Program-made: the position numbers and the translations under genes
Notes under the pieces: generated by a model
Database searches by the model: none
Seen by the model: the letters and a program-made list of their open reading frames with translations, nothing else
Told to the model about the DNA's origin: nothing
Shown here: positions 2,593-22,556 of the stretch, in pieces
How positions within the stretch are numbered: the first letter of the stretch is position 1
How the letters are laid out: each line of letters starts with the position of its first letter
Source of the DNA: Pseudomonadota bacterium
GTDB lineage: Bacteria; Pseudomonadota; Gammaproteobacteria; Burkholderiales; JALYOK01
Length of the DNA stretch: 36,582 nt
Reading direction: 5' to 3'
Assembly: GCA_031406045.1 (NCBI GenBank)
Contig: JANOGO010000279.1
Location: forward strand, 1 to 36,582

Positions 2593-2614
2593 TCGTTAGC
2601 GATAGGAAATAATC

Positions 2615-3895
2615 TTAAAGGCGCCACAAACTCAAACCCGATTCCTTAACGGCCTTCGGATCGAATTGGCATTTGACGTCGATGAAGCAACCGCCATTTT
2701 TGACTTTGCTCAAATAATCCTTCATCGGCCGCGCTAAAAATTCTTTGTGCGCGACGGCGGCGACAATCGCATCGGCTTGCGGCAATTCATCCCAACTGCG
2801 CAGCGTTACGCCGTATTCGTGTTTCGCTTCGGCAGACTCGGCCATTGGATCGTGCACTTGAACGTCGATGCCGTAGGACTGCAATTCCTGAATGATGTCG
2901 ATGACTTTTGAGTTGCGCAAATCCGGGCAATTTTCTTTGAAGGTGAGACCCAGCACATTGACCTTCGCACCTTTTACTTGCGAGCCGGCGTTGATCATCT
3001 TTTTCACCGTTTGTTCGGCGATGTGTTTGCCCATGCTGTCGTTAATGCGCCGGCCCGCGAGAATCACTTGGGGAATGTAGCCAAGCATCTCGGCTTTGTG
3101 GGTCAGATAATAAGGATCGACGCCGATGCAGTGGCCGCCGACCAAGCCCGGACGGAACGGCAAGAAATTCCATTTGGTGCCGGCGGCCTTCAGCACTTCC
3201 ATCGTGTCGATGCCGATGCGATCGAAGATCAGCGCCAGTTCGTTCATCAACGCGATATTAAGATCGCGCTGCGTGTTCTCGATGACCTTCGCCGCTTCCG
3301 CGACCTTGATGCTGGATGCGCGATGCACACCAGCGGTAATAATGCTTTCGTACAGCTGCGCGACTTTTTCCAGCGTGTCGGCGTCGTCGCCGGACACGAT
3401 TTTTAGAATTTTCGTCAGCGTGTGTTCTTTGTCGCCGGGATTAATGCGCTCTGGCGAATAACCGACATGGAAATCTTTCAGCCATTTCATGCCCGAATGT
3501 TTTTCCAATACCGGAATGCAAACTTCTTCGGTCGCACCTGGATATACCGTAGATTCGTACACCACGATCGCACCTTTTTTCATGTACTTGCCGACGCTCG
3601 TGCTGGAGCCGACCAAGGGTGAAAAATCCGGTTGATGAGCGATGTCTACCGGCGTGGGCACGGCAACGATAATGTAATCCGCCTTAGCAAGTTCCTTTGG
3701 ATCGGTTGTGACGGTGAGGTGCTTGGCCGCCTCAAGCTCGGCGGATGGCAACTCACCAGTCGGATCGATGAAGCGTTTGTAACTCGCGATTTTATCTTCG
3801 GAAAGATCGAAGCCGATGGTTTCACGGCGTTTACCGAATTCGACGGCAAGTGGAAGGCCTACATAGCCCAGTCCGACTACTGCAACAACACTCAT
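2615..3895 (-). CDS. wbpO: UDP-N-acetyl-D-glucosamine/galactosamine 6-dehydrogenase, WbpO/TviB (VipA) type
   Basis: The 426-aa ORF has the N-terminal Rossmann VVGLGYVGLPLAVEFG and the catalytic cysteine motif LVGGHCIGVDPYYL typical of nucleotide-sugar dehydrogenases. Confidence 0.88.
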   Translation of the reverse strand: MSVVAVVGLGYVGLPLAVEFGKRRETIGFDLSEDKIASYKRFIDPTGELPSAELEAAKHLTVTTDPKELAKADYIIVAVPTPVDIAHQPDFSPLVGSSTSVGKYMKKGAIVVYESTVYPGATEEVCIPVLEKHSGMKWLKDFHVGYSPERINPGDKEHTLTKILKIVSGDDADTLEKVAQLYESIITAGVHRASSIKVAEAAKVIENTQRDLNIALMNELALIFDRIGIDTMEVLKAAGTKWNFLPFRPGLVGGHCIGVDPYYLTHKAEMLGYIPQVILAGRRINDSMGKHIAEQTVKKMINAGSQVKGAKVNVLGLTFKENCPDLRNSKVIDIIQELQSYGIDVQVHDPMAESAEAKHEYGVTLRSWDELPQADAIVAAVAHKEFLARPMKDYLSKVKNGGCFIDVKCQFDPKAVKESGLSLWRL

Positions 3896-4012: not shown

Positions 4013-4106
4013 CTAACGAACCTTGGCGGGTCGTTGGGAATCTTCGTTATATTAGCGACTAATGCTCGGAATAATAGAACATTTTGTAATTTGTAAAAGG
4101 ACAATT

Positions 4107-4910
4107 ATGCATATCCATGCGCTCGTAGGACTTCGTCAACTGACTGTTCTGAAAACAATTATCGCCATTTTTTGCGGCATCATCGGCGTCGTTTTGCCGG
4201 CCCGCGCCGACTTGCCGCAAACCATCGAAAAAGTTCGCGGTTCTGTTGTTGGAGTCGGAACTTACCAGAAAACCCGCACGCCCGCCATGAATATGCTCGG
4301 CACCGGGTTCATCGTCGCCGACGGTCTGCATGTGATCACCAACGTCCATGTGAAGCCGCCATTCCTCGATACCGAGCAGCGCGAGGTGATGGTTGTGGTG
4401 ACCGGACGTGGCAAAGAGGTTCAAGTTCGTGAAGTGGAAGAAGTCGCGAGCGATCCCGATCACGACGTCGCGTTGCTGAAAATCAAGGGGGCGCCATTGC
4501 CCGCGATGATCCTCGGTGATCCGTCCGGCGTTCGGGAAGGGCAACAATATGCGTTCACCGGTTTTCCGATTGGCGCGATTTTGGGCCTTTATCACGTTAC
4601 CCATAAGGCAACGATTTCGTCGTTGACCCCCATCGTTATTCCAAGCCGAGGCTCAAGAGATTTGGATGTGAAATCGGTGGCACGCTTACGCAAAGCCTTC
4701 GACGTATTTCAACTCGATGCGACGGCCTATCCAGGCAACAGCGGCAGCCCGCTTTACGACCCGGCTACCGGGCACGTTGTTGGGGTGTTGAATATGGTTT
4801 TCGTGAAGCAAACCAAAGAAAACGTATTATCCGACCCGAGCGGAATTGCTTACGCAATCCCGATTAGTCACGTGACCACCCTACTCAAACGGGCGAACGT
4901 CAAATATTAG
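4107..4910 (+). CDS. Secreted trypsin-like serine protease (S1 family, no PDZ domain)
   Basis: The catalytic triad context is visible: GTGFIVADGLHVITNVHV (His), HDVALLKI (Asp) and AYPGNSGSPLYD (Ser). The signal peptide is LKTIIAIFCGIIGVVLPARA/DL. I prefer the ATG at 4107 (AAAGG 7 nt upstream) over the track start at 4062. Confidence 0.8.
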   Translation: MHIHALVGLRQLTVLKTIIAIFCGIIGVVLPARADLPQTIEKVRGSVVGVGTYQKTRTPAMNMLGTGFIVADGLHVITNVHVKPPFLDTEQREVMVVVTGRGKEVQVREVEEVASDPDHDVALLKIKGAPLPAMILGDPSGVREGQQYAFTGFPIGAILGLYHVTHKATISSLTPIVIPSRGSRDLDVKSVARLRKAFDVFQLDATAYPGNSGSPLYDPATGHVVGVLNMVFVKQTKENVLSDPSGIAYAIPISHVTTLLKRANVKY

Positions 4911-6379
4911 CCGGCGCGCCCGTAAATATCGCCAAAGCGCACGATATCGTCTTCTTCCAGGTAGGCGCCGGTCTGAATCTCGATAATCTGCAATGGGATT
5001 CGTCCGGGATTCTCGAGCCGGTGGCGATTGGTTTTCGGAATGTACGTCGATTGATTTTCTTCCAGACAAAACTCTTGATCGCCATTGGTAATTTTTGCCG
5101 TCCCGGCAATCACCACCCAGTGTTCGGAGCGATGATAGTGCATTTGCATCGATAGTTTTTGGCCTGGTTTCACGACGATGCGTTTGATCTTGTAGTAGAG
5201 ACCTTCTTCCAAAATGGTGTAGCTGCCCCAGGGCCGAGCGACGGTCAAATGGGTTTCGGTCAAATGTGGATGGCGCGCTTTTACTTCGGAAACTAAGCGC
5301 TTTAAGTCGGCGACTTTGTCGCGCGGGCAAATCAGTGTGGCATCGCGGGTTTGTACCACGGCGAGATTTTCCACGCCTAACGCGGCAATGGTGCCACCGG
5401 TGGTCCAGAGCAAATTGTTTTGAGAATTCACCGTTAGCACGTCGCCTTCGATCATATTGCCTGCTGCATCTTTGTCGCGTTGCTGGTAAATCGCTTCCCA
5501 ACTGCCAAGATCGCTCCAGCCCATCTTGATCGGCACGACGGCGATATTTTTGCTGTGTTCGAGAATGCCATAGTCGACCGACAGATCCGGCATCGCCTGG
5601 TAGATTTCCTTTTTGGCCACCGCATCGCCGCCTTCGGCGAGATTGATTGCGGCTTCGTAAATGGCCGGCTGCAGGTCGCGCAACATTTGCATGAAGGTTT
5701 CCGCGTGAAACACAAACATGCCGCCGTTCCAGTAATGGTTGCCCTGAGCGAGGAGTTTGACGGCGGTGTCGGCGTCGGGCTTTTCTACGAAACGTATCAC
5801 CTTGCGAACCGGTAACTGTTTCGCGCCGGGAAGTTTAATCTCGTCGCCCGCTTGAATGTAGCCGAAACCTGTTGCCGGTTCTGTCGGCTCCATACCGAAC
5901 AACGCAATTTGGCCTTGGCTCGCGGCTTGCTCCGCTGCGCGCCACGCGGCGAGGAATGCTGGCCCATCGGCAATCGCATGGTCCGATGAGAACACACCGA
6001 TGATCGCGCTGGGCTGTTCTTTGACGATGCGTGCCGTGGCCCAGGCAATGGCGGGCAAGGTATTGCGGCCGACCGGCTCCGCCAGCACTTGGTCAGCCAA
6101 GCGCGCATCCACGGCGTGTAACTGGCCGGCGACTTCGAAGCGATGGTCGACATGGGTAACGGTGGTGACGTGTTGGCTTTTGACCATCGGCAGCAGCCGG
6201 CGCATGGTGTCCTGCAGCAGCGATTCTTGACCATTCAGCGCCAGTAACTGCTTCGGCATGGTCGCCCGCGACAACGGCCACAGACGCGTTCCCGACCCGC
6301 CGGCAAGGACGATCGCACGGCGGTTCAATTCGGTATCGTTAGTCATGGCGCTGATGGCGGATTCGGCCGGTGAATTCAT
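4907..6379 (-). CDS. manC: Bifunctional mannose-1-phosphate guanylyltransferase / mannose-6-phosphate isomerase (type II PMI)
   Basis: The 490-aa ORF has the N-terminal nucleotidyltransferase motif LAGGSGTRLWPLSR and a C-terminal cupin HYHRSEHWVVIAGTAKI. Confidence 0.9.
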   Translation of the reverse strand: MNSPAESAISAMTNDTELNRRAIVLAGGSGTRLWPLSRATMPKQLLALNGQESLLQDTMRRLLPMVKSQHVTTVTHVDHRFEVAGQLHAVDARLADQVLAEPVGRNTLPAIAWATARIVKEQPSAIIGVFSSDHAIADGPAFLAAWRAAEQAASQGQIALFGMEPTEPATGFGYIQAGDEIKLPGAKQLPVRKVIRFVEKPDADTAVKLLAQGNHYWNGGMFVFHAETFMQMLRDLQPAIYEAAINLAEGGDAVAKKEIYQAMPDLSVDYGILEHSKNIAVVPIKMGWSDLGSWEAIYQQRDKDAAGNMIEGDVLTVNSQNNLLWTTGGTIAALGVENLAVVQTRDATLICPRDKVADLKRLVSEVKARHPHLTETHLTVARPWGSYTILEEGLYYKIKRIVVKPGQKLSMQMHYHRSEHWVVIAGTAKITNGDQEFCLEENQSTYIPKTNRHRLENPGRIPLQIIEIQTGAYLEEDDIVRFGDIYGRAG

Positions 6380-6581
6380 GGCGGGACGTCTCGTTCGGAA
6401 ATGGAGTTCTTATTGTAGTCGAAGCGCGGCGAAATCAAGCTCTGGGTTTTGCAACGGCGATCGTTCAGAGGCACGTCAAATGGCGATTTGCCGGGCATAA
6501 GCCTGAAAGCCCTTTATGGACGGCTTTCTACAGCCATATCCCTTGGAGAACCAATCAGGATAAGCGTCTTCAGGCGATGTC

Positions 6582-9044
6582 TTATTCGTTGCTACGTGAG
6601 CGGGTGCGTTTCGCCTCAACACGCTGAGGTTCGTCCGACCACTTAACCAGCGCTATAAACAACATCAAATAGAACAACACGGCGACGCGGGGAAATTCGA
6701 ACAGACTATTAAACGTGCCGACTGTAACGAAGCCAGCGAGCGATACCAGCATTGCAAGGGCGATGAGTTGTCCGCGGCTGACTAGCATCAATAAGCGGCA
6801 CGCTGCATAAATAATCAGGGTGACCAGCAAAATTAATCCAAGCCAGCCTTGCTCAAAAAAAGTATGTACCCAAATACTTTCGATATGCCACGGCCAGAAA
6901 TTACTCACAGAAAATAACCAGTGGTCGCCGCCTTGGCTGAATTCGCCGTTTTTCAGCAAATTATTGCCGCTGACATCGGTCAAGCGAACATTATCGATAT
7001 CGATATGGGTTCCGCCGATCGGGTTGACCAGCCAGGCCTGTACCGGTTTTTTGCCGAAGCGATGCCATGCTCCCAAATTACGGCTTTGGAACGGTATTTC
7101 CAAGCGTTGCCATGAACCGTCATTCTTTTGCAGTGGCAAAATTTTGGTTTCGCAATTTTCCGAGTACAACAACAACGATTCGCATAGGCCGGCTTGCACC
7201 CGCGCCTTCGAAAAAGTCGTGCGCACATCGAATGAAAACATCAGACTGCGATATGGCTCGGGGTTGATGCGCTGTGCGTAATATAGCGTCACGCCGCCGA
7301 GACTATCGTGGGTACCGCCGACGCGAAGGAAGGTATTGCCCGGTTCGTCCATCAGGGTAAATGTTCCAGGGGGCGTGGTGCGGGGGCTGCGCCAGAAAAA
7401 TAAACTAGGAAAGCGGCCGACGCCCATGCCAAAAAATTGTGTGACGAGGGTGCTATCCATCATGTTCAGCGTATCTTGCCAATGCACCATACGGTCGCGA
7501 ACCGCACCGGAGCGATCGGAAAACCGCGCGCTGACAAAATAAGAATTGCCGGCAATGGGCACGCTCATGAAAAATATCAGGCTGACGAACGCGAGCATCG
7601 AGGCGTGCGGAACATTGGGCCGCCACAACGGCCGTTTCACCATTCGATTCAGGCTTACCAGCACCAGCACGAACACCACGGCGCTCAACGCTGCCCACAT
7701 CGCTGGCATCCCGCCCCAGTGCTTGCCGACGAATGGCGTCACTACGGCGGTTGCAAGAAATCCCGACCACGCCATACGATGTTTCGACGCGCGGGGTTTC
7801 AGGACGGTCAGCGCGACACCGATAAAACCGATCAAAAAAGTAATCGCATAGGCGATATACACGCCTTTTGCGAAGAACTGAATCAACACGAAGCTCGCGA
7901 TAATTAACGCAATCGCGAGCGCAATTCCAACCGCACCACCACCGCGAACCTCAGCTTTACGTCCCAAGAAAAAGCTTAACGCCATAAATCCCAATATTGC
8001 CGCGAGCGAGCGATAACCGCCGGATGCAAAAACGGCAAAGCACAGCACGCTCATCAGAATAACCGTTACGACCACCAGTAAGGCGCGTCTCGTGCTGAAA
8101 ACGCCGGTCGCTTTCTGCCGAACCATTGCGCCGAAGGCCAACATGAAGATCATCACGATGCAGGCGACATAGAGGCCGCGTGAGAAAGTCACCATGATGG
8201 TGTAGCTGCCCAACGCTAACAGCGCCGCCGCCGCGAACACTTTTATCAGCGGCCGCTGTTCGCTTAACCAAAGCAACGTGAACGGCAACGCCAGCGCCAG
8301 ATAACCGTCAATCGCGCCGCCGCCGACATGCATGGACCCAAAGGTCGATGTGACGCGATAATTTTCGGAAAAATTCGTCAGGCCGGGGAAGGCGATACGT
8401 TCCCAAATAGCAACACACACCACGCCGGCCAGACCCGCCAATATGCCGGGAACCCAATAATTCGACAGCGCTTTGGCGTTGCTCCCTAGATCGGCTCGCA
8501 CAAGGAATAAAAATGCGATCGCCCACGCCAAGCTCTTGCCGACGCGAAATCCGTTGTACCGGCTGTAGTAGTTGGCGAAGGCATTGCTATCTATTGGCTC
8601 TAGGGGCGCTACGCCAATCACAGTGCTGATAATGAAAACGACAACAAAGGTGGAAATGAGAAACGCCGCCGCCGGCGCCAGCCGTGCCGGCCGGCCGCCA
8701 CCGCTGCGCAGCGATCCGATTGCGACGGTGACGAGGAAAAAAAGATCGACCTCGTCGAAAAAAAAACGACCCGACCACGGCGCTAAATTCAGAGCGGGCG
8801 CAAGCGCCGGAACAAAAAACAGCCACAGTCGCGGTTCTCGCCAGAGGATCGCGGCGTAACCGATCAAGGCGACAACGAGTAAGAGCGGAAAGATTGGAAA
8901 GCGATACGCACCATAAGCCGCGACGGCGATCAACGCCGCCGCGAGCGGCGCGGCCCAGATCAGGCGGGAAAACTTAACGGGTTGGTGAGCGATACCGTTT
9001 TCGACCGGCGGCATAGCTCGATTTCCCAGTGAAAATTTACGCAA
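6582..9044 (-). CDS. Large polytopic Wzy/O-antigen-ligase-like membrane protein with an embedded soluble beta-rich domain
   Basis: The 820-aa ORF has many hydrophobic helices and a Wzy_C-like stretch (IMVTFSRGLYVACIVMIF). A hydrophilic segment of about 230 aa (roughly nt 6810-7502) contains IDIDNVRLTDVSGNNLLKNGEFSQGGDHW, which looks like a carbohydrate-binding module, ahead of the last helices. The track start at 9044 is TTG; an ATG at 9014 is an alternative. Confidence 0.7.
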   Translation of the reverse strand: MRKFSLGNRAMPPVENGIAHQPVKFSRLIWAAPLAAALIAVAAYGAYRFPIFPLLLVVALIGYAAILWREPRLWLFFVPALAPALNLAPWSGRFFFDEVDLFFLVTVAIGSLRSGGGRPARLAPAAAFLISTFVVVFIISTVIGVAPLEPIDSNAFANYYSRYNGFRVGKSLAWAIAFLFLVRADLGSNAKALSNYWVPGILAGLAGVVCVAIWERIAFPGLTNFSENYRVTSTFGSMHVGGGAIDGYLALALPFTLLWLSEQRPLIKVFAAAALLALGSYTIMVTFSRGLYVACIVMIFMLAFGAMVRQKATGVFSTRRALLVVVTVILMSVLCFAVFASGGYRSLAAILGFMALSFFLGRKAEVRGGGAVGIALAIALIIASFVLIQFFAKGVYIAYAITFLIGFIGVALTVLKPRASKHRMAWSGFLATAVVTPFVGKHWGGMPAMWAALSAVVFVLVLVSLNRMVKRPLWRPNVPHASMLAFVSLIFFMSVPIAGNSYFVSARFSDRSGAVRDRMVHWQDTLNMMDSTLVTQFFGMGVGRFPSLFFWRSPRTTPPGTFTLMDEPGNTFLRVGGTHDSLGGVTLYYAQRINPEPYRSLMFSFDVRTTFSKARVQAGLCESLLLYSENCETKILPLQKNDGSWQRLEIPFQSRNLGAWHRFGKKPVQAWLVNPIGGTHIDIDNVRLTDVSGNNLLKNGEFSQGGDHWLFSVSNFWPWHIESIWVHTFFEQGWLGLILLVTLIIYAACRLLMLVSRGQLIALAMLVSLAGFVTVGTFNSLFEFPRVAVLFYLMLFIALVKWSDEPQRVEAKRTRSRSNE

Positions 9045-9065
9045 CCACCTGCAAATGCATTGTTT

Positions 9066-9734
9066 TTAGCTCTGCCATTTACCGGCTTTAACCAGCATGT
9101 CTTTTAGACCGGACAACGGGAATCCGCCCGCGTAGGCTTTTCGCGCGTAATCGCGAGATTTCTCGTAGTCTTTTAAATTGAAATAAAGCAAACCCATGTT
9201 GTAAAACAAATTCGAATTGTTCTTCAATTTCTGCTCGGCCAATTCATAGTGTGGAATCGCTTCTTTGAAGCGCTTCACCCGTGTGCTGGATAGGTAATTC
9301 GCGTAAATCATTCGCACCATCCCGTCCGCGGGACGCCAACGTATCGCGCGATCAAACCAGCAGTCCACGCTGTATTTAGAACCGGCTGGTTTTGGTGTAT
9401 TTTCTCGCCACGAAAGGCGCACGATAGCGTTCAATGCGCGATGATGGTTTGGAAACGCGTGTAAAACGTAGGTGATGTCCCCCGTCGGGCGCGGCGTTTC
9501 TTCCTTGAAACCGCCGACAAGATTTTCAACTCGTCCGTTGAAATGGTGCAAATTGACGACCGGCAGTTTGTTGCGGTAGTCGGACGGATCGGTATAGTCA
9601 TAGGGACCATACCCGCCATCTCTACGCTCGATCGGCCCACACGCGTCGTACTCGGCAAGCGCGGTGAGGGGAACGGAAAAAATCAATATGCCAATGATAT
9701 TTTGAAGGTATTTCAACATAGGTTCATCACTCAT
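9066..9734 (-). CDS. Secreted protein of unknown function with C-terminal TPR-like repeats
   Basis: The 222-aa ORF has the signal peptide MLKYLQNIIGILIFSVPLTALA/EY. Its C-terminus has TPR-like helices (NLFYNMGLLYFNLKDYEKSRDYARKAY). It lies 21 nt upstream of the ligase-like gene on the same strand. Confidence 0.6.
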   Translation of the reverse strand: MSDEPMLKYLQNIIGILIFSVPLTALAEYDACGPIERRDGGYGPYDYTDPSDYRNKLPVVNLHHFNGRVENLVGGFKEETPRPTGDITYVLHAFPNHHRALNAIVRLSWRENTPKPAGSKYSVDCWFDRAIRWRPADGMVRMIYANYLSSTRVKRFKEAIPHYELAEQKLKNNSNLFYNMGLLYFNLKDYEKSRDYARKAYAGGFPLSGLKDMLVKAGKWQS

Positions 9735-10017
9735 TCACGGTTAAGGCCAGGAGCAAAAATTGTTCCAAAGCTATAAAAATTCCAACGTCGAAACGAAGAC
9801 GTAAGTCATAGTTGTAAAGTTCAGGAACGCGAATCAGATCGTTAGGGAGAGGAGCCCATTAACTTCTTAGCTTGGGATACTTAACGTTGTAGCTCAATTT
9901 TTTCATGATGTCATTTTACCCTGTGGTGTTCGTTAAGCCCATCCCCTTGATTCCCGAACTAAAGGCATGAATTATCGGGCCTATCTGGATTAATCGGAAG
10001 ATCATGCTATCGTAACG

Positions 10018-10029
10018 ATGTCTAGACAT
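10018..10029. promoter_or_regulatory. Perfect 12-bp palindrome; candidate operator in a divergent promoter region
   Basis: ATGTCTAGACAT is its own reverse complement. It lies in the 488-bp AT-richer gap between divergent genes. A 5-1-5 palindrome ATCGTAACGAT sits immediately upstream (about 10008-10018). Confidence 0.25.
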
Positions 10030-10222
10030 TAGATTTTGATTGAAGTTGCGCTGCATCCGCCGCGAGCTGGACCTTCTGAGGTCAGGACGCGATTGCGAAA
10101 GACAGTCGCCCGCCGCGCGTTTCGTTTATACCGCCGTAGGGTATCATTCGCGGCAAAGCGCAACGCCGTTTTTACGCGAGCACCAACCCTAAGCTTTTTT
10201 TCCCTTAACTAATTTCACGTTT

Positions 10223-11818
10223 ATGGGTGAATTAATTCACGATTTAATTGCTGCTTCGGCTCGGCGCGCGCCGAATAGAGCGGCTTTAGTTTATCAAAAA
10301 CAATCTGTTACATTTACGGGGCTGGATAGTGCCGTCAGCGCGGCAGCGCAGCTTTTCCTGGGCCATGGGTTAAAAAAATCTGAGCGGGTTGCGACGTTTA
10401 TTGAGAAGCGGGTTGAGAATATCGTCGGTATGTTTGGCGCCGCCCGAGCCGGCGGCGTGTTCGTGCCGATCAATCCGCTGCTCAAGGGCGAACAAGTCGT
10501 TTACATCATGAATGACTGCAACGTTCGGGTGCTCGTGACCTCGTTGGATCGCCTAAAGTTGTTAGCGCCATACGTTAAAAACTGTCCCGATTTGCGAGCG
10601 GTAATCGTCGTAGATCGCGGCAGTAACGTCATGCCTGAATTCGCCAACTTAACCGTAATTGAATGGGAAAATGGATTGGCCACAGCGCCAAGCCAGCAAT
10701 GCCATCGCGTAATCGACGGCGACATGGCGGCGATTCTGTACACATCCGGTAGCACCGGCAAGCCCAAAGGCGTCGTTTTATCACACCGGAATATCGTTGC
10801 CGGTGCGAAAAGCGTTGCGCAATACTTAGAGTTGACGTCCGACGATCGCATTTTGTCGGTATTGCCGCTGTCGTTCGATTACGGATTCAATCAGCTCACG
10901 ACGGCGTTTTTGGTCGGCGCAACGGCGGTCTTGATGAACTATTTATTCCCTCGCGACGTGATCAAAGCGGTTGCGGAGGAAAAAATAACTGGGCTCGCCG
11001 CCGTTCCGCCGCTGTGGGTGCAGCTTGCGCAGTTGCCGTGGCCGCAAGCCGTTGTCGACCATCTGCGCTACATCACCAATTCCGGCGGGCATATGCCCGA
11101 GCCTACGCTTAAGGCGTTGCGCCAAGCATTACCGAAAACTACACCTTTCCTGATGTATGGCCTGACCGAGGCATTCCGCTCGACTTACCTGCCGCCCGAT
11201 CAAGTCGAAAAACGGCCTGATTCGATCGGCAAAGCCATTCCCAACGCAGAAATTTTAGTGGTGCGCGAAGACGGTACGGAATGCGCCGCGGACGAGCCGG
11301 GCGAATTAGTGCATCGCGGCGTTCATGTTTCCCTCGGCTACTGGAATGATGTTGAAAAAACCGCCGAGCGCTTTAAGCCAGCGCCCGGCCAACTCAGCGG
11401 GTTGGTGATGCCGGAAATGGCCGTTTGGTCCGGCGACACGGTTAAACGTGATAGCGAAGGTTTTTTATATTTCATCAGCCGCCGCGACGAAATGATCAAA
11501 ACCTCGGGATATCGCGTCAGCCCAACGGAAGTGGAGGAGGTGATTTACGCAACGGGATTGGTCAGCGAGGTAGCGGCGTTCGGCGTTGCCCATCCCACGC
11601 TTGGTCAAGCAATTGTCGTGGTTGTGATGCCTAAACTATCCCAGCAAATGTCGCCGGAGGCGCTGCTCGCAGCGGCCAAATCGGAATTACCGGCCTTCAT
11701 GGTGCCGCATAAAATCATTGTCAGCACGGAAAGTTTACCGCGTAATCCGAATGGGAAAATCGATCGAAAAGCCTTAGCCCAAGGCGCACAAGATCTTTAT
11801 GAAGCTGCCAAGGCATGA
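10223..11818 (+). CDS. Acyl-CoA ligase (AMP-forming), exosortase A system-associated type
   Basis: The 531-aa ORF has the adenylate-forming motifs ILYTSGSTGKPKGVVLSHRN, GYRVSPTEVEE and PRNPNGKIDRKAL. It is adjacent to its usual PLP decarboxylase partner. Confidence 0.88.
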   Translation: MGELIHDLIAASARRAPNRAALVYQKQSVTFTGLDSAVSAAAQLFLGHGLKKSERVATFIEKRVENIVGMFGAARAGGVFVPINPLLKGEQVVYIMNDCNVRVLVTSLDRLKLLAPYVKNCPDLRAVIVVDRGSNVMPEFANLTVIEWENGLATAPSQQCHRVIDGDMAAILYTSGSTGKPKGVVLSHRNIVAGAKSVAQYLELTSDDRILSVLPLSFDYGFNQLTTAFLVGATAVLMNYLFPRDVIKAVAEEKITGLAAVPPLWVQLAQLPWPQAVVDHLRYITNSGGHMPEPTLKALRQALPKTTPFLMYGLTEAFRSTYLPPDQVEKRPDSIGKAIPNAEILVVREDGTECAADEPGELVHRGVHVSLGYWNDVEKTAERFKPAPGQLSGLVMPEMAVWSGDTVKRDSEGFLYFISRRDEMIKTSGYRVSPTEVEEVIYATGLVSEVAAFGVAHPTLGQAIVVVVMPKLSQQMSPEALLAAAKSELPAFMVPHKIIVSTESLPRNPNGKIDRKALAQGAQDLYEAAKA

Positions 11819-13050
11819 GCACAAATAAGCCAAGCCACGCGCCACGCAATCATTGGCGCAGCGAAAACGGCTGCTTGCAAGTCAATGGCGTTGCACTGAC
11901 GCGCCTGGCGGCGCGTGTCGGGCAAACGCCGTTTTTCGCCTACGATCGCGAGCTATTGCGCGAGCGAGTAGCGCTATTACGTCAGCACATTCCAGCCGAT
12001 ATTCATTTGCATTACGCAATGAAAGCGAACCCGATGCCGGCCGTGGTGCAATTCATGGCGCGTTTGGTAGACGGTTTGGATGTTGCCTCCGGGAATGAAC
12101 TACGCGTTGCGTTAGATTCCGGCATGAATCCGGAACTGATCAGCTTTGCCGGTCCGGGCAAAAGTGAGCGCGAGTTGACGTCGGCAATTGCGGCGGGCAT
12201 TACGATTAATTTGGAATCGCCCCACGAGATGGAAACCGCAGCGAAGTTGGGCGTGGCGCTGAATATTCGTCCGCGCGTGGCGGTGCGTGTGAATCCTGAT
12301 TACGAGCTCAAATCGTCCGGTATGAAAATGGGCGGCGGACCCAAGCAATTCGGTATCGATGCCGAGATGGTTCCCGAAACCCTCACGCGGATGAAATCCT
12401 TACCGATCGATTTTCAGGGATTTCATATCTATAGCGGATCGCAAAATCTGCGCGCTGAATCGATTCAAGAAGCGCAGGAAAAAACTTTAGAGCTAGCGTA
12501 TCGACTATCCGAGTACGCGCCGACGGCCGTGCGCCTGCTGAATATCGGCGGCGGCTTCGGCATTCCGTATTTTCCCGGCGAAACGCCGCTGGATATCGCT
12601 GCGGTGGGTGACAATTTGCGTCGATTAATGCCCGAGGCTAAGCGTCGTTTCCCGCACGCTCAATTGGTGATCGAATTGGGTCGTTATCTAGTGGGCGAAG
12701 CGGGAATTTACGTGTGCAAAATTATAGATCGCAAGATTTCCCGTGGTCATGTTTTTCTCGTGACCGACGGCGGCTTGCATCATCAGCTTGCGGCTTCCGG
12801 AAACTTCGGTCAGGTGATACGAAAAAATTATCCGGTCGCGATCGGCAATCGCATGAACGAAACACCGTCAGAAACCGCCTCGGTGGTGGGGCCGCTTTGC
12901 ACTCCGCTTGATTTGCTCGGCGACAAGATGGAATTTCCGCATGCGGAAATCGGCGATTTGGCCGTCGTGTTTCAGTCGGGTGCGTATGGGCTGACCGCCA
13001 GCCCGACGGCGTTTTTAAGTCATCCGGCACCGCTCGAAGTATTAGTCTAA
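11815..13050 (+). CDS. Pyridoxal-dependent decarboxylase (Orn/DAP/Arg decarboxylase fold type III), exosortase A system-associated type
   Basis: The 411-aa ORF has the PLP-lysine motif HYAMKANP, plus GGGFGIPY, ELGRYLVGEAG, GPLCTPLD and SGAYG. Its start overlaps the ligase stop as ATGA. Confidence 0.88.
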   Translation: MSTNKPSHAPRNHWRSENGCLQVNGVALTRLAARVGQTPFFAYDRELLRERVALLRQHIPADIHLHYAMKANPMPAVVQFMARLVDGLDVASGNELRVALDSGMNPELISFAGPGKSERELTSAIAAGITINLESPHEMETAAKLGVALNIRPRVAVRVNPDYELKSSGMKMGGGPKQFGIDAEMVPETLTRMKSLPIDFQGFHIYSGSQNLRAESIQEAQEKTLELAYRLSEYAPTAVRLLNIGGGFGIPYFPGETPLDIAAVGDNLRRLMPEAKRRFPHAQLVIELGRYLVGEAGIYVCKIIDRKISRGHVFLVTDGGLHHQLAASGNFGQVIRKNYPVAIGNRMNETPSETASVVGPLCTPLDLLGDKMEFPHAEIGDLAVVFQSGAYGLTASPTAFLSHPAPLEVLV

Positions 13051-13077
13051 ATAACGCATATATGCAGGGAGAACGGC

Positions 13078-14916
13078 TTGGCCGGAATTTGTGGTTGGCT
13101 CAATAACACGGCGAGTGCATCGCCACCGAATTTGGAGTTGATGGCAAACGCGTTAGTGCGATTCGATGGTGCTCGCCCGCAATCGTTGTCCGAACCATGG
13201 TGCGGTCTGACGGCCGCTGATTTGGGCGCCGCTCAATTTCTGATTGAAGAAGGCCATTTGCTGATCGGTTTTTCCGGCGCGCCAAATTTCGCGAATCGCG
13301 AACTGAACGACCTCGCCGCTGCGCGTGGCCGCGGCACGGCGTTGGCCGAGGCCTATCGGCGCTGGAAAGACGATCTGGCTATTCACCTGTTGGGCCAATA
13401 TTCGGTCGCGATCATCGACCAAAACGAGCAATCGCTTTATCTTGCAGTCGATCGTTTTGTGACCCATCCATTGGCCTACGCGTTGGAATCGAGCGGTATC
13501 CGTTTTGCGTCTAACCTTGATTCGTTGAACATCGAGCAAGGTTTGCAACTGAGTCCGCAATCGATTTTCAACTACGTTTATTTTCACGTTATTCCCGGGC
13601 CGGGAACGATTTACCGCGACGTCAAGCGCTTGCTAGCAGGCGAATCTTTGAGTTTCAAAAACGGTCAAGCCGAACCGCGGCGCTATTGGCGGCCGGAGTT
13701 TATTGAAAATCAACATTCATCGTTCGACGAACTTAAACAGGATTTTCTCGGCGCTTTACGCGCTGCGGTAAAGAGCACATCGGACGGTCACAATTGCGGC
13801 GCGTTCTTAAGCGGCGGCACCGATAGCTCGACCATCGCCGGCTTGCTCGGCGAGGTCTCCGGCGCTTCGGCGCGAACCTATTCGATCGGATTTGAAGCGA
13901 CGGGCTACGACGAAATGGATTACGCTCGTCTGGCTGCAAAGCATTTTAAAACGGACCATCACGAATATTATGTAACGCCCGCCGACGTGGCGGAAGCGAT
14001 ACCGAAAATTGCGCAGGTTTACGATCAACCATTCGGTAATTCCTCGGCCGTCCCGACGTATTTTTGCGCGCGCTTCGCCAAACAAGACGGCATTGATTTG
14101 CTGCTAGGTGGCGACGGTGGCGACGAACTTTATGGCGGTAATGAGCGCTATGCGAAGCAGCATGTTTTTGCGCACTATGCGCGGGTCCCAGGCGTGATCC
14201 GTTCGGTGTTGATCGAGCCGTTAATGGCAATGCCTGGCGTCGACAGTATCATGCCGTTACGCAAGGCCAAGAGCTATCTGCAGCAGGCAAAAATATCGAT
14301 GCCGGCACGGATGGAAACCTATAACTTACTCGATCGCTTTGGTGTCAGCAAAGTCCTTGCGCCGGAATTTCTCGCAACCGTTCAAACCGATGCGCCGCTG
14401 CGGCATTTAACCGATGTTTATAACGACGCTCACGCGCGTACTTTAATCAATCGCATGTTGGCGCTTGATTTCAAATTGACGCTGAGCGACAACGATTTGC
14501 CGAAGGTTTCGCGGATGTGCGAATTGGCGCAAGTGAATGTCGCCTATCCGATGTTGGACGATGGCGTACTAGATTTTTCATTGCGGCTCGCGCCCGGCTT
14601 GAAATTGAAGGGTACTAAGCTGCGTTATTTTTTCAAAGAAGCGCTGCGCGGATTTTTGCCGGATGCGATTCTTACGAAGTCGAAACACGGCTTTGGATTG
14701 CCGTTCGGCCCTTGGCTTCGCGATCACGCGCCGTTACAGCAAATTGCCTATGGCAGTCTTGAACAACTCGGCGATCGTGGCATTATTCGCAAGGAATTTA
14801 CCCGCGAACTGATCGACGTCGTGCGCTCGGGGCATGCCGGTTACTATGGAACAATGGTATGGGTGCTAATGATGTTGGAGCTTTGGCTCTCCCATCACCA
14901 GCCGGCAAAAGGTTAA
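13078..14916 (+). CDS. Asparagine synthetase (AsnB)-like amidotransferase with a non-canonical N-terminus
   Basis: The 612-aa ORF has the PP-loop AFLSGGTDSSTIAGLL and a GATase-II-like N-domain. It uses a TTG start with an AGGGAGA Shine-Dalgarno 5 nt upstream. The N-terminus is MAGICGW, so Cys is residue 5 and not residue 2. Confidence 0.85.
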   Translation: MAGICGWLNNTASASPPNLELMANALVRFDGARPQSLSEPWCGLTAADLGAAQFLIEEGHLLIGFSGAPNFANRELNDLAAARGRGTALAEAYRRWKDDLAIHLLGQYSVAIIDQNEQSLYLAVDRFVTHPLAYALESSGIRFASNLDSLNIEQGLQLSPQSIFNYVYFHVIPGPGTIYRDVKRLLAGESLSFKNGQAEPRRYWRPEFIENQHSSFDELKQDFLGALRAAVKSTSDGHNCGAFLSGGTDSSTIAGLLGEVSGASARTYSIGFEATGYDEMDYARLAAKHFKTDHHEYYVTPADVAEAIPKIAQVYDQPFGNSSAVPTYFCARFAKQDGIDLLLGGDGGDELYGGNERYAKQHVFAHYARVPGVIRSVLIEPLMAMPGVDSIMPLRKAKSYLQQAKISMPARMETYNLLDRFGVSKVLAPEFLATVQTDAPLRHLTDVYNDAHARTLINRMLALDFKLTLSDNDLPKVSRMCELAQVNVAYPMLDDGVLDFSLRLAPGLKLKGTKLRYFFKEALRGFLPDAILTKSKHGFGLPFGPWLRDHAPLQQIAYGSLEQLGDRGIIRKEFTRELIDVVRSGHAGYYGTMVWVLMMLELWLSHHQPAKG

Positions 14917-15006: not shown

Positions 15007-15984
15007 CTATGAATAGGCCGGATTTGGCGACGGCCGCCAGATGTTTTGCAGCAAACGCACCTGCAGCCGCGATCTAAGTTTATCCCACGGCGCGTAGCGC
15101 GGTAGTTGAAATAAATCGGTAGCGGCGCTAGCCGCGCCGCTGGCAGTCGATACGGCCATCTTAAAACCCGCATCTTTAACCATCTGCGCGTGGCGCGCTG
15201 CGTAGTCAAGATCGGGGCGACCGTTCGGATAGGCAAACAAATTAATTTTTTCTTTCAGGATCGATTCCAGCGTCGCCTTGCTTTCCGCCAATTCGGAACG
15301 AACTTGCGCATCGTCGATTTGCGTCAGAATCGGATGATTCACGGTGTGCGCGCCGATTTCAATGTTGGCCCGACGCGCGGCGATCACCTCGGCGGAAGAC
15401 AGCATCAGGTCAGCCGGTAACGTCGCGCCGATTAGCGAAGTCAACTCGTTCACTCGCGCCAAGCGCTCGGCGAATGGCAAATACTTCAGTTGATCTAGGA
15501 GCTTTGCAATAGCTTGGCCACGCGCCGCGTCGCTTGCGATCGAGTGCACGCCAAGCTGCAGCGCGCTAGCGTCGATCGATGAACCAGGGGCACGACGCAC
15601 GGCCTCAATCACGCTGTCGTTCCACATCCGGCCACCATCAAGAAATCCAGTTGCGACGAAAACCGTCGCCGGCAAACCATAGCGCTGCATCACCGGTCCG
15701 GCGACCGTGAAGTTGTCACGATAACCGTCATCGAACGTAATGCACGCTGCGCGCGGCGGTAGCGAGCGTTTGGCCAAGCGCTCGATTGCCTCCGATAGCG
15801 GCAACAGGTTGAATCCCTCCGCCAAGGTTTTCATATGACAATCGAACACTTCCGCCGTTGGCGTATAGGGCGCGAGCGGGTCGGCGCGATCCAGCACGCG
15901 GTGGTACATCACAATCGTGAGCCGGCCACGGCTACCACCAGGGGAAAGTAATGTCGCCAGCAGCGGGAAAAAAGTATTCAACAT
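15007..15984 (-). CDS. Polysaccharide deacetylase (NodB homology domain)
   Basis: The 325-aa ORF has the NodB motifs ACITFDDGYRDN, IEIGAHTVNHP and LFAYPNG. Confidence 0.85.
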   Translation of the reverse strand: MLNTFFPLLATLLSPGGSRGRLTIVMYHRVLDRADPLAPYTPTAEVFDCHMKTLAEGFNLLPLSEAIERLAKRSLPPRAACITFDDGYRDNFTVAGPVMQRYGLPATVFVATGFLDGGRMWNDSVIEAVRRAPGSSIDASALQLGVHSIASDAARGQAIAKLLDQLKYLPFAERLARVNELTSLIGATLPADLMLSSAEVIAARRANIEIGAHTVNHPILTQIDDAQVRSELAESKATLESILKEKINLFAYPNGRPDLDYAARHAQMVKDAGFKMAVSTASGAASAATDLFQLPRYAPWDKLRSRLQVRLLQNIWRPSPNPAYS

Positions 15985-19450: not shown

Positions 19451-21379
19451 CTAGACTACGGCGCTCTCACGTTCCGGGAGAATGGCGCTGCCTTTGTTTA
19501 GGCCGAGGAATGAATCGAACATCAACACCGACCAGAGCGGGGTGCTGTGATCGCGCATGCCAGACTCATGCTGTTCCAGCATTTGTTTTAAGTAGTCGGG
19601 ATTGAGGTAACCAGTTTCGGCGAGCCGCGAACTCATAACGCTGCTGCGCAGTTTCGCGCGCAACGGGCCGCGGAACCAATTTGCAAGCGGCACCGCGAAT
19701 CCCATTTTTGGGCGATACAGAATCGAATCCGGCAGGTAGGGCTCCAACGCTTTTTTCAACACGTATTTTCCCTCTTGACCGCGCAGCTTGAAGTCCTCGG
19801 GTAAACCGGAAAGCCATTCGAGCATGGGATGATCTAACAACGGTTCACGAACTTCCAGCGCGTGAGCCATGCTGGCGCGATCGACTTTCGTCAATATGTC
19901 CCCGGGTAAATAGGTTTTGGTATCCAAATATTGAATCAGCGATAGGCCGCTCTGAACCGGGGAGCGCTTAGCATGCCGCTGTAACACCTCAAACGCCCGG
20001 TAACCTTGCAGTTCGCGTTGAAATCCCGGAGTGAATAGCTGGTTGCGCATCTCGTCGCTCGTCAGCGAGACGGTATGAAAATAGGCTTCGACGGAATTGC
20101 GCGCGAGCGCTTGCAGCGTGGTCTTCGCGCGAAACATTCGTGGTGCCCAATCTGCTTTTGGATACAGTTTGCCGACAATGTTGAATAGCGGTCGGCGCAA
20201 GCCAAGCGGCATAAATGAACGAATCTTTTCTTCGTTCATATGCCAACGATAGCGCCGGTAGCCACCAAAATTTTCGTCGCCACCATCGCCGGAAAGCGCA
20301 ACAGTCACCGATTTACGCGCTAATTGGCAGACGCGGTAAGTCGGCATTGCCGAGCTATCGGCATACGGCTCGTCATAAAGCGATGCCAGCGTATCGACCA
20401 AAGCAAAGTCATCAGGATCGACCTGTTCAACGCGATGATTGGTTTGATAGCGCTGGGCGACTTCTCTAGCATATTGCGATTCGTTAAATTTCGGATCGCC
20501 AAATGAAATTGAACAGGTATTGACTGGATCCTTCGAAAGACCCGCCATCATTGCAACCACGGCGCTAGAGTCGACGCCGCCGGAGAGAAACGCGCCGAGC
20601 GGAACTTCTGAGACCAGGCGAATCTTTACTGCTTCCCGTAAACGCTCAACCACTTCGGCCAAGGCGTCCTTCTCGCTGATCGGGCTGATCGGATTAAAAG
20701 TCAGGTCCCAATATTCCTTGCTCGCCGGCAGTGGTCTTCCACGCTGAATCGTTAAGGTATGGCCTGGATTTAACTTGAACGCTTGCTTATAAATGGTGCG
20801 TGGCTCGGGCACATAGCCGTATGCGAAATAATCTTCAACCGAGCGCGGGTCAATTTCTTGCGATAGCTTGGAATGGCACAACAGCGACTTGAGTTCCGAC
20901 GCAAAAATAATCGTGTTGTCGGGCATCGCAGCGTAAAACAACGGTTTGACGCCGAGCCGATCGCGGGCTAGGAAAAAAGTTTGGCGATTGCGATCCCATA
21001 GCGCAAATGCAAACATGCCGCGAAAGCGCGATACGCAGGCTTCGCCCCATTCTTCCCAGGCATGCACGATGACCTCAGTATCGGATTTTGTACGGAACTG
21101 ATGGCCTCGAGCGATGAGCTCGGGCATTAATTCTTGGTAGTTATAGATTTCGCCGTTGAATACCACGACAACACTGTGATCTTCATTGAATAGCGGTTGT
21201 TGCCCGGTAGACAAGTCGATGATGGAGAGGCGCCGATGGCCGAGGCCGACCCCTGGTTCAACGTGGATGCCGCCCTCATCGGGGCCGCGATGGAATTGCA
21301 CTTGGTTCATTCGCTCGAGCAATGAACGCGAAATTTCTTTAGTGCCGCCAAAATCAAAAATGCCGACGATGCCGCACAT
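19451..21379 (-). CDS. Asparagine synthase (glutamine-hydrolysing)-type amidotransferase, exosortase A system-associated
   Basis: The 642-aa ORF has the canonical Ntn N-terminus MCGIVGIF and the PP-loop AFLSGGVDSSAVVAMM. Confidence 0.9.
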   Translation of the reverse strand: MCGIVGIFDFGGTKEISRSLLERMNQVQFHRGPDEGGIHVEPGVGLGHRRLSIIDLSTGQQPLFNEDHSVVVVFNGEIYNYQELMPELIARGHQFRTKSDTEVIVHAWEEWGEACVSRFRGMFAFALWDRNRQTFFLARDRLGVKPLFYAAMPDNTIIFASELKSLLCHSKLSQEIDPRSVEDYFAYGYVPEPRTIYKQAFKLNPGHTLTIQRGRPLPASKEYWDLTFNPISPISEKDALAEVVERLREAVKIRLVSEVPLGAFLSGGVDSSAVVAMMAGLSKDPVNTCSISFGDPKFNESQYAREVAQRYQTNHRVEQVDPDDFALVDTLASLYDEPYADSSAMPTYRVCQLARKSVTVALSGDGGDENFGGYRRYRWHMNEEKIRSFMPLGLRRPLFNIVGKLYPKADWAPRMFRAKTTLQALARNSVEAYFHTVSLTSDEMRNQLFTPGFQRELQGYRAFEVLQRHAKRSPVQSGLSLIQYLDTKTYLPGDILTKVDRASMAHALEVREPLLDHPMLEWLSGLPEDFKLRGQEGKYVLKKALEPYLPDSILYRPKMGFAVPLANWFRGPLRAKLRSSVMSSRLAETGYLNPDYLKQMLEQHESGMRDHSTPLWSVLMFDSFLGLNKGSAILPERESAVV

Positions 21380-22549: not shown

Positions 22550-22556
22550 ATCCCTG

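Follow-up and report, generated by a model that had tools for sequence, protein, structure and literature searches.

In several antibiotic pathways glutamate or aspartate is adenylated (by BtrJ, CtaD or FlvN), tethered through its side chain to a carrier protein (BtrI, CtaE or FlvL) and then α-decarboxylated (by BtrK, CtaF or FlvO), yielding 4-aminobutyrate (GABA) or β-alanine (PMC11350588). This logic, in which an amino acid is first tethered and then loses its α-carboxylate, has previously been seen only in antibiotic pathways, i.e., those leading to butirosin, vicenistatin, fluvirucin and closthioamide. Here we describe three plus-strand genes at 10223-14916 of a 36,582-nucleotide (nt) stretch from a bacterium of the Burkholderiales (contig JANOGO010000279.1 of GCA_031406045.1; the whole stretch is referred to below as the window). 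They encode a ligase, a decarboxylase and a protein resembling AsnB, and converge on an operon of the exosortase A (XrtA) type. By analogy with the antibiotic enzymes, the ligase, acyl carrier protein (ACP) and decarboxylase associated with exosortase A would fit this logic component by component. The reading that we favor, and to which we give about an even chance of being correct, is that the trio is the adenylation/decarboxylation half of an exosortase-A-associated cassette, making a carrier-linked β-alanyl- or GABA-like group that would decorate exopolysaccharide. To view the cassette as a BtrIJK/VinNLO-type carrier pathway in exopolysaccharide decoration appears to be new, as a full-text literature search returned no match.

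The ligase (531 residues, 10223-11818), the decarboxylase (411 residues, 11815-13050) and the AsnB-like protein (612 residues, 13078-14916) are encoded by closely coupled open reading frames (ORFs), all on the plus strand. As a preliminary description of this DNA had stated, the stop of the ligase and the start of the decarboxylase gene share an ATGA overlap of 4 nt (11815-11818), and the third gene follows after a gap of 27 nt (13051-13077) containing a Shine-Dalgarno sequence. The latter reads AGGGAGA (13066..13072, plus strand) and lies 5 nt before a TTG start. No terminator was detected in this gap, and scans for σ70 promoters and terminators, together with a search for the σ54 consensus upstream of the ligase gene, gave nothing above background. 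When the genes were compared with orthologues from three related loci (L006, L008 and L009, L numbers being our identifiers for loci; 72-88% protein identity), dN/dS was 0.03-0.085 for all three. Because these values are low and the same gene order recurs in dozens of genomes, we take the genes to be real. The family identities given in the preliminary description, i.e., an AMP-forming ligase, a fold-type III decarboxylase with the motif HYAMKANP and an AsnB-like enzyme with a PP-loop, were also recovered, with the models TIGR03098, TIGR03099 and Asn_synthase, respectively. Both enzymes so identified, the ligase and the decarboxylase, belong as ordinary members to families that are catalogued but uncharacterized. 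Full-text searches found no paper on these two families, in line with the earlier remark that no substrate had been established for either, and Haft 2006 (PMC1569441) does not mention the genes.

The decarboxylase scored 625.7 bits against TIGR03099 (cutoff 478.45) and is a BtrK-like member of the fold-type III pyridoxal phosphate (PLP) enzymes, with its PLP lysine (K70) in the sequence HYAMKANP (12010-12033), which is invariant in the family alignment. The nearest relative of solved structure was BtrK (7RU7/2J66; 274 bits, E = 2e-80), which is an L-glutamyl-[BtrI ACP] decarboxylase. Among other structures, the best diaminopimelate (DAP) decarboxylase reached 165 bits, ornithine decarboxylases about 50 bits and the N-citrylornithine decarboxylase 7KH2 46 bits. 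BtrK was the carrier-dependent decarboxylase covered by this comparison, VinO, FlvO and CtaF being without an entry in the PDB and thus outside it. The decarboxylase and BtrK have in common the motifs CTP(L/E)D, HH..AAS and SGAYGL.xSP..FL.HP, and the plus-strand sequence encodes these BtrK-type motifs as GPLCTPLD at 12889-12912 and SGAYGL at 12976-12993. The earlier term "amine-generating decarboxylase" is therefore probably a misdescription, since the closest characterized relative acts on an amino acid tethered to a carrier and not on the free one.

Housekeeping LysA was considered as an identity for this protein and rejected. The score against the lysA model TIGR01048 was 239.1 bits, below the cutoff of 297.9, whereas a genuine lysA, adjacent to lptM in a related genome, scored 531.6 bits and was only 29% identical to the decarboxylase. 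At the places where the genuine LysA has CESGD, NDLIRPALY and SNYNTRPRP, the decarboxylase has GPLCTPLD, DGGLHHQLAAS and SPTAFLSHP, i.e., the LysA motifs are missing. In structures of DAP decarboxylases, the LysA motifs (CESGD, NDL[IM]RPxLY and NYNxRP) touch the substrate at its distal end. One related genome has a canonical lptM-lysA pair (L173, GCA_965186115.1; 9747-11272) a few kilobases from its hydrolase operon, and this lineage therefore has a separate housekeeping DAP decarboxylase.

The clade that contains BtrK and the DAP decarboxylases also holds SbnH, AcsE, FigC and MccE, which decarboxylate conjugated amino acids (PMC7857480), and FslC was a weak profile match for the decarboxylase. 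By the logic of SbnH and FslC/FigC, the ligase or the AsnB-like protein might first attach the side chain of aspartate, glutamate, ornithine, diaminopropionate or DAP to a carboxylate or an amine of the sugar precursor or polymer, with the α-carboxylate trimmed afterwards and no carrier involved. Such a route would explain those loci in which the ligase and decarboxylase genes have no ACP gene within 10 kb. We nevertheless consider it rather improbable, given the 274 bits for BtrK against 46 bits for the N-citrylornithine decarboxylase, a ligase that resembles the adenylation (A) domains of nonribosomal peptide synthetases (NRPSs) and not the NRPS-independent siderophore synthetases, and the presence of ACP genes elsewhere in Nitrosospira and in the metagenome-assembled genome (MAG) representing the window, the two lineages without a ligase-linked ACP that could be checked.

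The ligase scored 808.2 bits against TIGR03098 (cutoff 592.35), the match covering profile positions 1-516 of 517. The label of this family is "acyl-CoA ligase, exosortase A system-associated." A second rejected identity was that of a FadD-type fatty-acid ligase, which the preliminary description had raised as a possible objection: among the NCBIfam models of this type, NF006182 came highest with 330 bits (cutoff 663), and because every FadD-type model falls far below its cutoff the ligase is not FadD-like. Its nearest solved structures were instead NRPS A domains and, judged by its sequence, the protein is a stand-alone adenylation enzyme of the NRPS type. Asp235 and Lys517 are kept in all 69 family ligases (numbering of GrsA-PheA, whose reference sequence was validated by its ten code positions), and the specificity code reads D-Y-(S/N)-A-T-S-M-..-K.

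The substrate pocket of the ligase resembles that of VinN. When the pocket segment (residues 205-377) was compared alone, VinN scored 84 bits and the next structure 51. The loop between β13 and β14 is two residues shorter than in GrsA and LgrA, and the alignment with VinN runs across it without a gap. In the ligase, D, Y, S and R take the places of D230, F231, S299 and R331 of VinN, the segments SFD-Y-G, TN-S-G and TEAF-R-S aligning to WD-F-G, TN-S-A and TECK-R-I of VinN. The corresponding plus-strand coordinates are 10871-10888 for SFDYGF, 11072-11089 for ITNSGG, 11156-11182 for YGLTEAFRS (whose TEAFRS portion is invariant in 69 of 69 family ligases) and 11750-11767 for NGKIDR. The ligase thus has the Asp at GrsA position 235, which serves the amino group, a bulky residue at 236, Ser at 301, the short loop and the loop Arg, i.e., the VinN-type features apart from K330 (see below). 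In VinN, the pocket determinants serve recognition of the side chain (the β-amino-acid mode) of 3-methylaspartate and aspartate (PMC11253843).

The third protein of the trio scored 253.9 bits against the Pfam model Asn_synthase and fell below both curated cutoffs (285.2 versus 816.9 bits for TIGR03108; 213.3 versus 267.1 bits for TIGR01536). The synthetase half is intact, so that this part of the AsnB-like label stands: the PP-loop SGGTDSS (residues 245-251; 13810-13830), GGDGGDE (14107-14127) and KHGFGLPFG (14683-14709), all on the plus strand, are invariant in the family, as is DNDLPKV. However, the protein is not a normal glutamine-dependent AsnB. Its N-terminus, M-A-G-I-C-G-W (13078-13098), places the cysteine at position 5 and not at position 2, a glutamine amidotransferase (GATase) profile matched residues 88-150 only, and an alignment of 116 family members shows no conservation of the glutaminase-site residues Arg49, Asn74, Glu76 and Asp98. 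The true glutamine-dependent paralogue in the window is the canonical XrtA/PEP-CTERM amidotransferase encoded on the minus strand at 19451..21379, which begins MCGI, scores 1088 bits against TIGR03108 (cutoff 817) and is 28-29% identical to the AsnB-like protein.

Throughout the AsnB-like family the N-terminus reads M-[SA]-G-[LIV]-C-G-W. The conserved leader M-S/A-G-L/I/V precedes Cys-Gly-Trp, the counterpart of the N-terminal nucleophile of true amidotransferases; this four-residue leader could be a short propeptide or a relic. A short propeptide is known in PurF of Bacillus subtilis. An ATG, GTG or TTG start lies four codons before the cysteine codon in 44 of 44 orthologous loci and is preceded in most of them by a purine-rich, Shine-Dalgarno-like stretch. 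An alternative start immediately before the cysteine, which would restore the N-terminal nucleophile, was ruled out: the codon at that position is often no possible start (in many loci it is TTA, GTA, TTT, ATC or ATA), and the distance from the Shine-Dalgarno stretch suits the upstream start. Because the upstream start is conserved, the cysteine cannot act as N-terminal nucleophile unless a four-residue propeptide is removed. It is in addition replaced in about 8 of 47 distant members of the family and absent from one Nitrosomonas member (L056).

An AlphaFold2 model of the AsnB-like protein (predicted local distance difference test score, 90.8) showed a complete two-domain AsnB fold, whose closest match was TsnB9 (7YLZ; template modeling scores 0.77/0.81), followed by β-lactam synthetase, AsnB and carbapenam synthetase. 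We conclude that the protein, as predicted from these features, acts as an ATP-dependent amide synthetase with a nitrogen source other than glutamine. The annotation "asparagine synthase (glutamine-hydrolysing)" is probably wrong for this subfamily, which comprises proteins of about 612 residues, has thousands of homologues and lacks a model of its own in NCBIfam release 20. That this subfamily, in which the cysteine is masked and dispensable, often supplies the third member of the cassette has apparently not been recognized before.

Gene order was surveyed in 80 genome loci around TIGR03099 homologues, with neighbors mapped by tblastn within 10 kb on either side and each scan comprising the 80 loci most similar to the query; a reverse census covered 80 metagenome loci of the AsnB-like subfamily. 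The ligase gene lay directly upstream of the decarboxylase gene in 64 of 67 informative loci, and an AsnB-like orthologue directly downstream and co-oriented in 39 of 73. The loci with the AsnB-like gene downstream include those of Nitrosomonas, Nitrosospira, Nitrosovibrio, Massilia, Pseudoduganella, Noviherbaspirillum and unclassified lineages.

The statement of the preliminary description that other XrtA loci carry an ACP and two α/β hydrolases was correct, one example (L007) encoding TIGR03100, TIGR03101 and a PP-binding protein, i.e., an ACP, and an ACP gene lies near the ligase gene in many related loci. However, the further claim that an AsnB-like enzyme takes the place of these partners was not upheld. 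Among the 37 loci flanked by 8 kb or more on each side, the AsnB-like gene and ACP/hydrolase genes occurred together in 12, the AsnB-like gene alone in 14, the ACP/hydrolase genes alone in four and neither in seven, so that there is no mutual exclusion. Since it follows the decarboxylase gene in those 39 loci with or without a nearby ACP, the AsnB-like gene is a frequent third member of the cassette and not a substitute. The positions also differ, the ACP/hydrolase block of related loci lying upstream of the ligase gene, between it and a gene for a tetratricopeptide repeat (TPR) protein, and the AsnB-like gene downstream of the decarboxylase gene. A common order in Oxalobacteraceae is Wzy-like, TPR, hydrolase 1, hydrolase 2, ACP and, optionally, a FemAB-like GNAT and DegT on one strand, followed on the other strand by ligase, decarboxylase and AsnB-like genes. 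In four loci (L060, L071, L075 and L078) the TPR homologue adjoins hydrolase 1 (TIGR03100), in the arrangement Wzy-like/TPR/hydrolases/ACP/ligase. The window shares the frame formed by the Wzy-like gene (6582-9044), the TPR gene (9066-9734) and the ligase gene, with nothing between the last two.

The attachment of the AsnB-like gene to the other two is looser in the reverse census, where no more than 18 of 52 metagenome loci had the decarboxylase gene directly upstream; among 22 well-flanked loci, this gene was present in 13 and absent from nine. In Sulfuricella denitrificans skB26 (L001, 6386-11839) the AsnB-like gene comes after PrsK/PrsR and has neither a ligase nor a decarboxylase gene in its vicinity, and in many loci it is convergent with a deacetylase gene. 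These observations would suit an arrangement in which the three genes do not serve a single pathway: those for the ligase and decarboxylase would form a two-gene unit, and the AsnB-like protein would be an independent enzyme of XrtA loci, acting for example in uronate amidation or lactamization or together with the deacetylase. We regard this as unlikely, though deserving of consideration, because the gene is directly downstream and co-oriented in 39 of the 73 loci with a decarboxylase gene, which come from Nitrosomonadaceae, Oxalobacteraceae and unclassified lineages, because where it has been rearranged it often still lies inside the cassette (L016, L114, L145 and L154), and because in the window a gap of only 27 nt, free of a terminator, separates it from the decarboxylase gene.

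Two further arrangements were seen in the census. In Nitrosomonadales (L001, L003, L013, L025 and others), the trio or a lone AsnB-like gene lies directly downstream of PrsK/PrsR (TIGR02916 and TIGR02915), a position that suggests control by σ54/PrsR. In some Oxalobacteraceae (L024, 7594-9704; L031, 13247-15381; L103, 6867-8956), genes for a DegT-type aminotransferase and a FemAB-like GNAT (Acetyltransf_6) come after the AsnB-like gene, giving a five-gene operon on one strand in the order ligase, decarboxylase, AsnB-like, DegT, GNAT.

In agreement with the preliminary description, no ORF resembling an ACP or an α/β hydrolase was found in the window by tblastn at E ≤ 1e-5. A hidden Markov model built from 25 cassette ACPs and run against the six-frame translation of the window gave a best E-value of 5.6, and neither the 489-nt spacer between the TPR and ligase genes, which is conserved in near-identical strains only, nor the remainder of the window contained an ACP remnant. 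The low dN/dS values reported above were thus seen in a lineage without a linked ACP. A contig of GCA_031372535.1 (L004) is, however, 99-100% identical to the window between 6.6 and 13.5 kb, and the same MAG holds a second contig, JANMLK010000328 (L172), with an ACP/hydrolase operon at 6045-11575. This operon encodes, in order, an ACP of 83 residues, a fused E1 resembling that of pyruvate dehydrogenase (PDH; α+β, 662 residues, thiamine pyrophosphate-dependent), a lipoyl E2 (365 residues), a second ACP of 89 residues, hydrolase 2 (TIGR03101; 267.5 bits, cutoff 202.75), hydrolase 1 (TIGR03100; 313 bits, cutoff 168), a GNAT-like protein (282 residues) and a GT4 glycosyltransferase. ACP-headed operons of this kind were also found in L169-L171, L174 and L010 (2504-8092). 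In Nitrosospira, similarly, the trio follows PrsK/PrsR and a block in the order ACP-hydrolase 2-hydrolase 1-GT4-TPR lies at a different locus. Subject to the caveat that the link between the two contigs depends on MAG binning, the organism has a split cassette and not a variant without carrier and hydrolases, and the window is the split form of a known cassette.

This bears on the scheme put forward in the preliminary description, in which the decarboxylase makes a free amine that the ligase and the AsnB-like enzyme join to a carboxylate, such as the uronate of N-acetylgalactosaminuronic acid (GalNAcA), the AsnB-like enzyme standing in for the ACP and hydrolases. The scheme accords with the tight coupling of the trio, with the 36.6 kb of window free of ACP and hydrolase genes, with the TviB/TviC-type genes for UDP-GalNAcA at 1561-3895 and with the dead glutaminase domain of the AsnB-like protein, which therefore needs another amine. 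We now judge it distinctly improbable. Two ACPs, TIGR03101 and TIGR03100 are encoded on the second contig of the MAG. Of the 26 well-flanked loci with an AsnB-like gene, 12 have ACP and hydrolase genes as well, at a position different from its own. The enzyme nearest to the decarboxylase is ACP-dependent, and A domains like VinN usually require a carrier. Gene neighborhoods gave no support to the proposed link with the uronate made by the TviB/TviC (WbpO/WbpP) homologues, as no scan of 80 loci showed such homologues at 10 kb or less from the cassette in more than 3. An amide-linked decoration is, as a general idea, still plausible.

The pathway that we favor starts from the family memberships, gene coupling, conserved order and partner genes elsewhere in the MAG described above. 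In it, the ligase would adenylate the side-chain carboxylate of an acidic amino acid (most likely L-aspartate, possibly glutamate) and load it on the ACP as a thioester, after which the BtrK-like decarboxylase would remove the α-carboxylate of the tethered residue to give β-alanyl-S-ACP or 4-aminobutyryl-S-ACP. The α/β-hydrolase-fold proteins would probably pass the amino-acyl group to the exopolysaccharide or to a lipid- or nucleotide-linked precursor, the most plausible acceptor being an amine exposed by the adjacent polysaccharide deacetylase. The AsnB-like enzyme, with its dead glutaminase half, would adenylate a carboxylate and couple it to an amine not derived from glutamine, the candidates being a sugar amine and the amine newly formed at the end of the side chain. 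We infer the loading and decarboxylation steps from specific homology, and the transfer to polysaccharide and the AsnB-like amide step from gene context only.

Several points weigh against this pathway. Support for these families comes from sequence and gene context, and homology with BtrK does not by itself prove a carrier-tethered substrate, the related SbnH, FslC/FigC and MccE acting on amide- or phosphate-linked amino acids (PMC7857480). K330 of VinN is replaced by Phe in all 69 family ligases, so that the substrate may differ from aspartate or 3-methylaspartate. The window itself has no carrier protein gene, and its connection to the second locus is through MAG binning. The ACP operon of this lineage also carries the PDH-like E1 and E2 genes, and the ACP may therefore receive a different acyl group. 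Hydrolases 1 and 2, when compared with PDB sequences, returned generic esterases and S33 peptidases only and no VinJ-like relative. Finally, as the reverse census indicates, the AsnB-like family is not obligately tied to the ligase-decarboxylase pair, and its role may accordingly be independent. An E1/E2 pair that feeds an ACP is known from the QncN/L/M glycolyl-ACP system, and from the pair beside the ACP a second acyl unit may be made on the carrier.

Family profile searches identified the content of the window as an exopolysaccharide locus of the textbook exosortase A (XrtA/PEP-CTERM) type. The XrtA operon runs on the minus strand from 34691 down to 15007 and encodes the export protein TIGR03027, the chain-length determinant TIGR03007, the tyrosine autokinase TIGR03018, the outer-membrane protein TIGR03016, the ATPase TIGR03015, WecB, the XrtA deacetylase TIGR03006, the FemAB-like protein TIGR03019, the glycosyltransferases stp1 and stp2, a GT4 glycosyltransferase and a β-helix/kelch protein, in addition to the amidotransferase already mentioned. 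The exosortase itself is an XrtA-EpsI fusion of 527 residues (22557-24140, minus strand; XrtA TIGR03109, 345 bits). Its ORF overlaps that of stp2 (21383-22693, minus strand) by 137 nt; the stp2 profile match begins at residue 53, and the GTG start of stp2 is therefore probably over-extended. No PEP-CTERM tail was found on any ORF of at least 80 residues in the window.

The last gene of the operon, convergent on the AsnB-like gene, encodes a second polysaccharide deacetylase (15007..15984, minus strand; PF01522, 79.3 bits), a candidate source of the free amine acceptor. Its homologues occur near the decarboxylase or AsnB-like gene in many loci, and 12 of 63 metagenome loci have one downstream of the AsnB-like gene at a distance of no more than 1.5 kb. 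On the other side of the trio, and divergent from the ligase gene, lie the gene for the TPR protein (9066..9734, minus strand; TPR matches in Pfam) and that for a large membrane protein resembling Wzy/O-antigen ligases (6582..9044, minus strand; a weak match to Wzy_C). Homologues of the latter hold the same relative place in nine loci (L005, L006, L018, L028, L055, L060, L071, L075 and L078), i.e., the Wzy-like gene travels with the TPR gene and the cassette.

Three other plus-strand genes of the window were noted. At 34967-35764, divergent from the XrtA export gene, is a gene for an N-acyl amino acid synthase of the FeeM type (PF21926, 176.7 bits); this type of enzyme uses acyl-ACP and might here form an amide that is lipid-like or diffusible. 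The left edge (609-1031) carries the gene for an EntH/MenI/PaaI-type thioesterase with a hotdog fold (TIGR00369, 133.7 bits); enzymes of the EntH type proofread carrier-protein thioesters. A trypsin-like serine protease (PF13365) is encoded between the sugar-nucleotide genes (4062-4910); of 80 genome loci, 8 have a homologue no farther than 10 kb from the cassette, and in Sulfuricella (L001) a homologue adjoins PrsK/PrsR.

The families concerned have so far been catalogued as "exosortase A system-associated," with no chemistry proposed for them in the full-text literature searched. The favored model predicts an amino-acyl decoration of the XrtA-dependent polysaccharide in floc- and biofilm-forming Betaproteobacteria, i.e., nitrifiers, Massilia and wastewater organisms of the Competibacter type. 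If true, it would be among the earliest biochemical ways into the PEP-CTERM/exosortase system. A far more speculative extension, which we think very improbable, is that an amine-terminated handle on the exopolysaccharide (β-alanyl or 4-aminobutyryl, perhaps extended or capped by the AsnB-like protein or the FemAB-like one associated with XrtA) would be the long-sought nucleophile for attachment of PEP-CTERM proteins by exosortase A, much as sortase uses the Fem-built cross-bridge amine of peptidoglycan.

How does the cassette compare with the systems that it resembles? With BtrI/BtrJ/BtrK of butirosin biosynthesis in Bacillus circulans it shares a fold-type III PLP decarboxylase and a small stand-alone ACP, here encoded in the same genome bin, and the proposed likeness extends to ATP-dependent loading of an acidic amino acid through its side chain and to transfer of an ω-amino-acyl group onto a sugar amine (PMC11350588). 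However, the loader here belongs to the ANL/NRPS A-domain family, whereas BtrJ is an ATP-grasp enzyme, there are no homologues of BtrO/V, BtrH or BtrG, and the setting is not an aminoglycoside cluster but an exopolysaccharide/exosortase locus in Proteobacteria with an unlinked ACP gene.

The VinN/VinL/VinO set of vicenistatin and the FlvN/FlvL/FlvO set of fluvirucin also combine a stand-alone A domain having a VinN-type pocket with an ACP and a PLP decarboxylase, theirs acting on a tethered substrate of the aspartate type. A further ATP-dependent, amide-forming enzyme is present in both cases, i.e., VinM in the vicenistatin set and, as predicted, the AsnB-like protein here. Unlike those systems, the cassette has Phe in place of K330 and no glutamate mutase, VinK-type acyltransferase or polyketide synthase; its second ATP-dependent enzyme has an AsnB fold, whereas VinM is an A domain, and its hydrolases have no detectable specific similarity to VinJ.

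The AsnB-like protein shares with members of the AsnB superfamily, i.e., the hydroxyamidotransferase TsnB9, β-lactam synthetase, carbapenam synthetase and the lasso-peptide cyclases, the two-domain fold and a PP-loop for adenylation of a carboxylate followed by amide formation. It differs from them in its family-specific N-terminus, M-x-G-[LIV]-C-G-W, and is only 13-18% identical to them, although, as in β-lactam synthetase and the lasso cyclases, its N-terminal domain is no longer a glutaminase. A further comparison is with the exosortase A accessory set already catalogued in TIGRFAMs/NCBIfam (TIGR03098, TIGR03099, TIGR03100, TIGR03101 and the ACP). The cassette described here differs in being split over two loci, with a second ACP and PDH-like E1 and E2 in its ACP operon; its ligase and decarboxylase nevertheless pass the cutoffs of their families, and do so beside XrtA.

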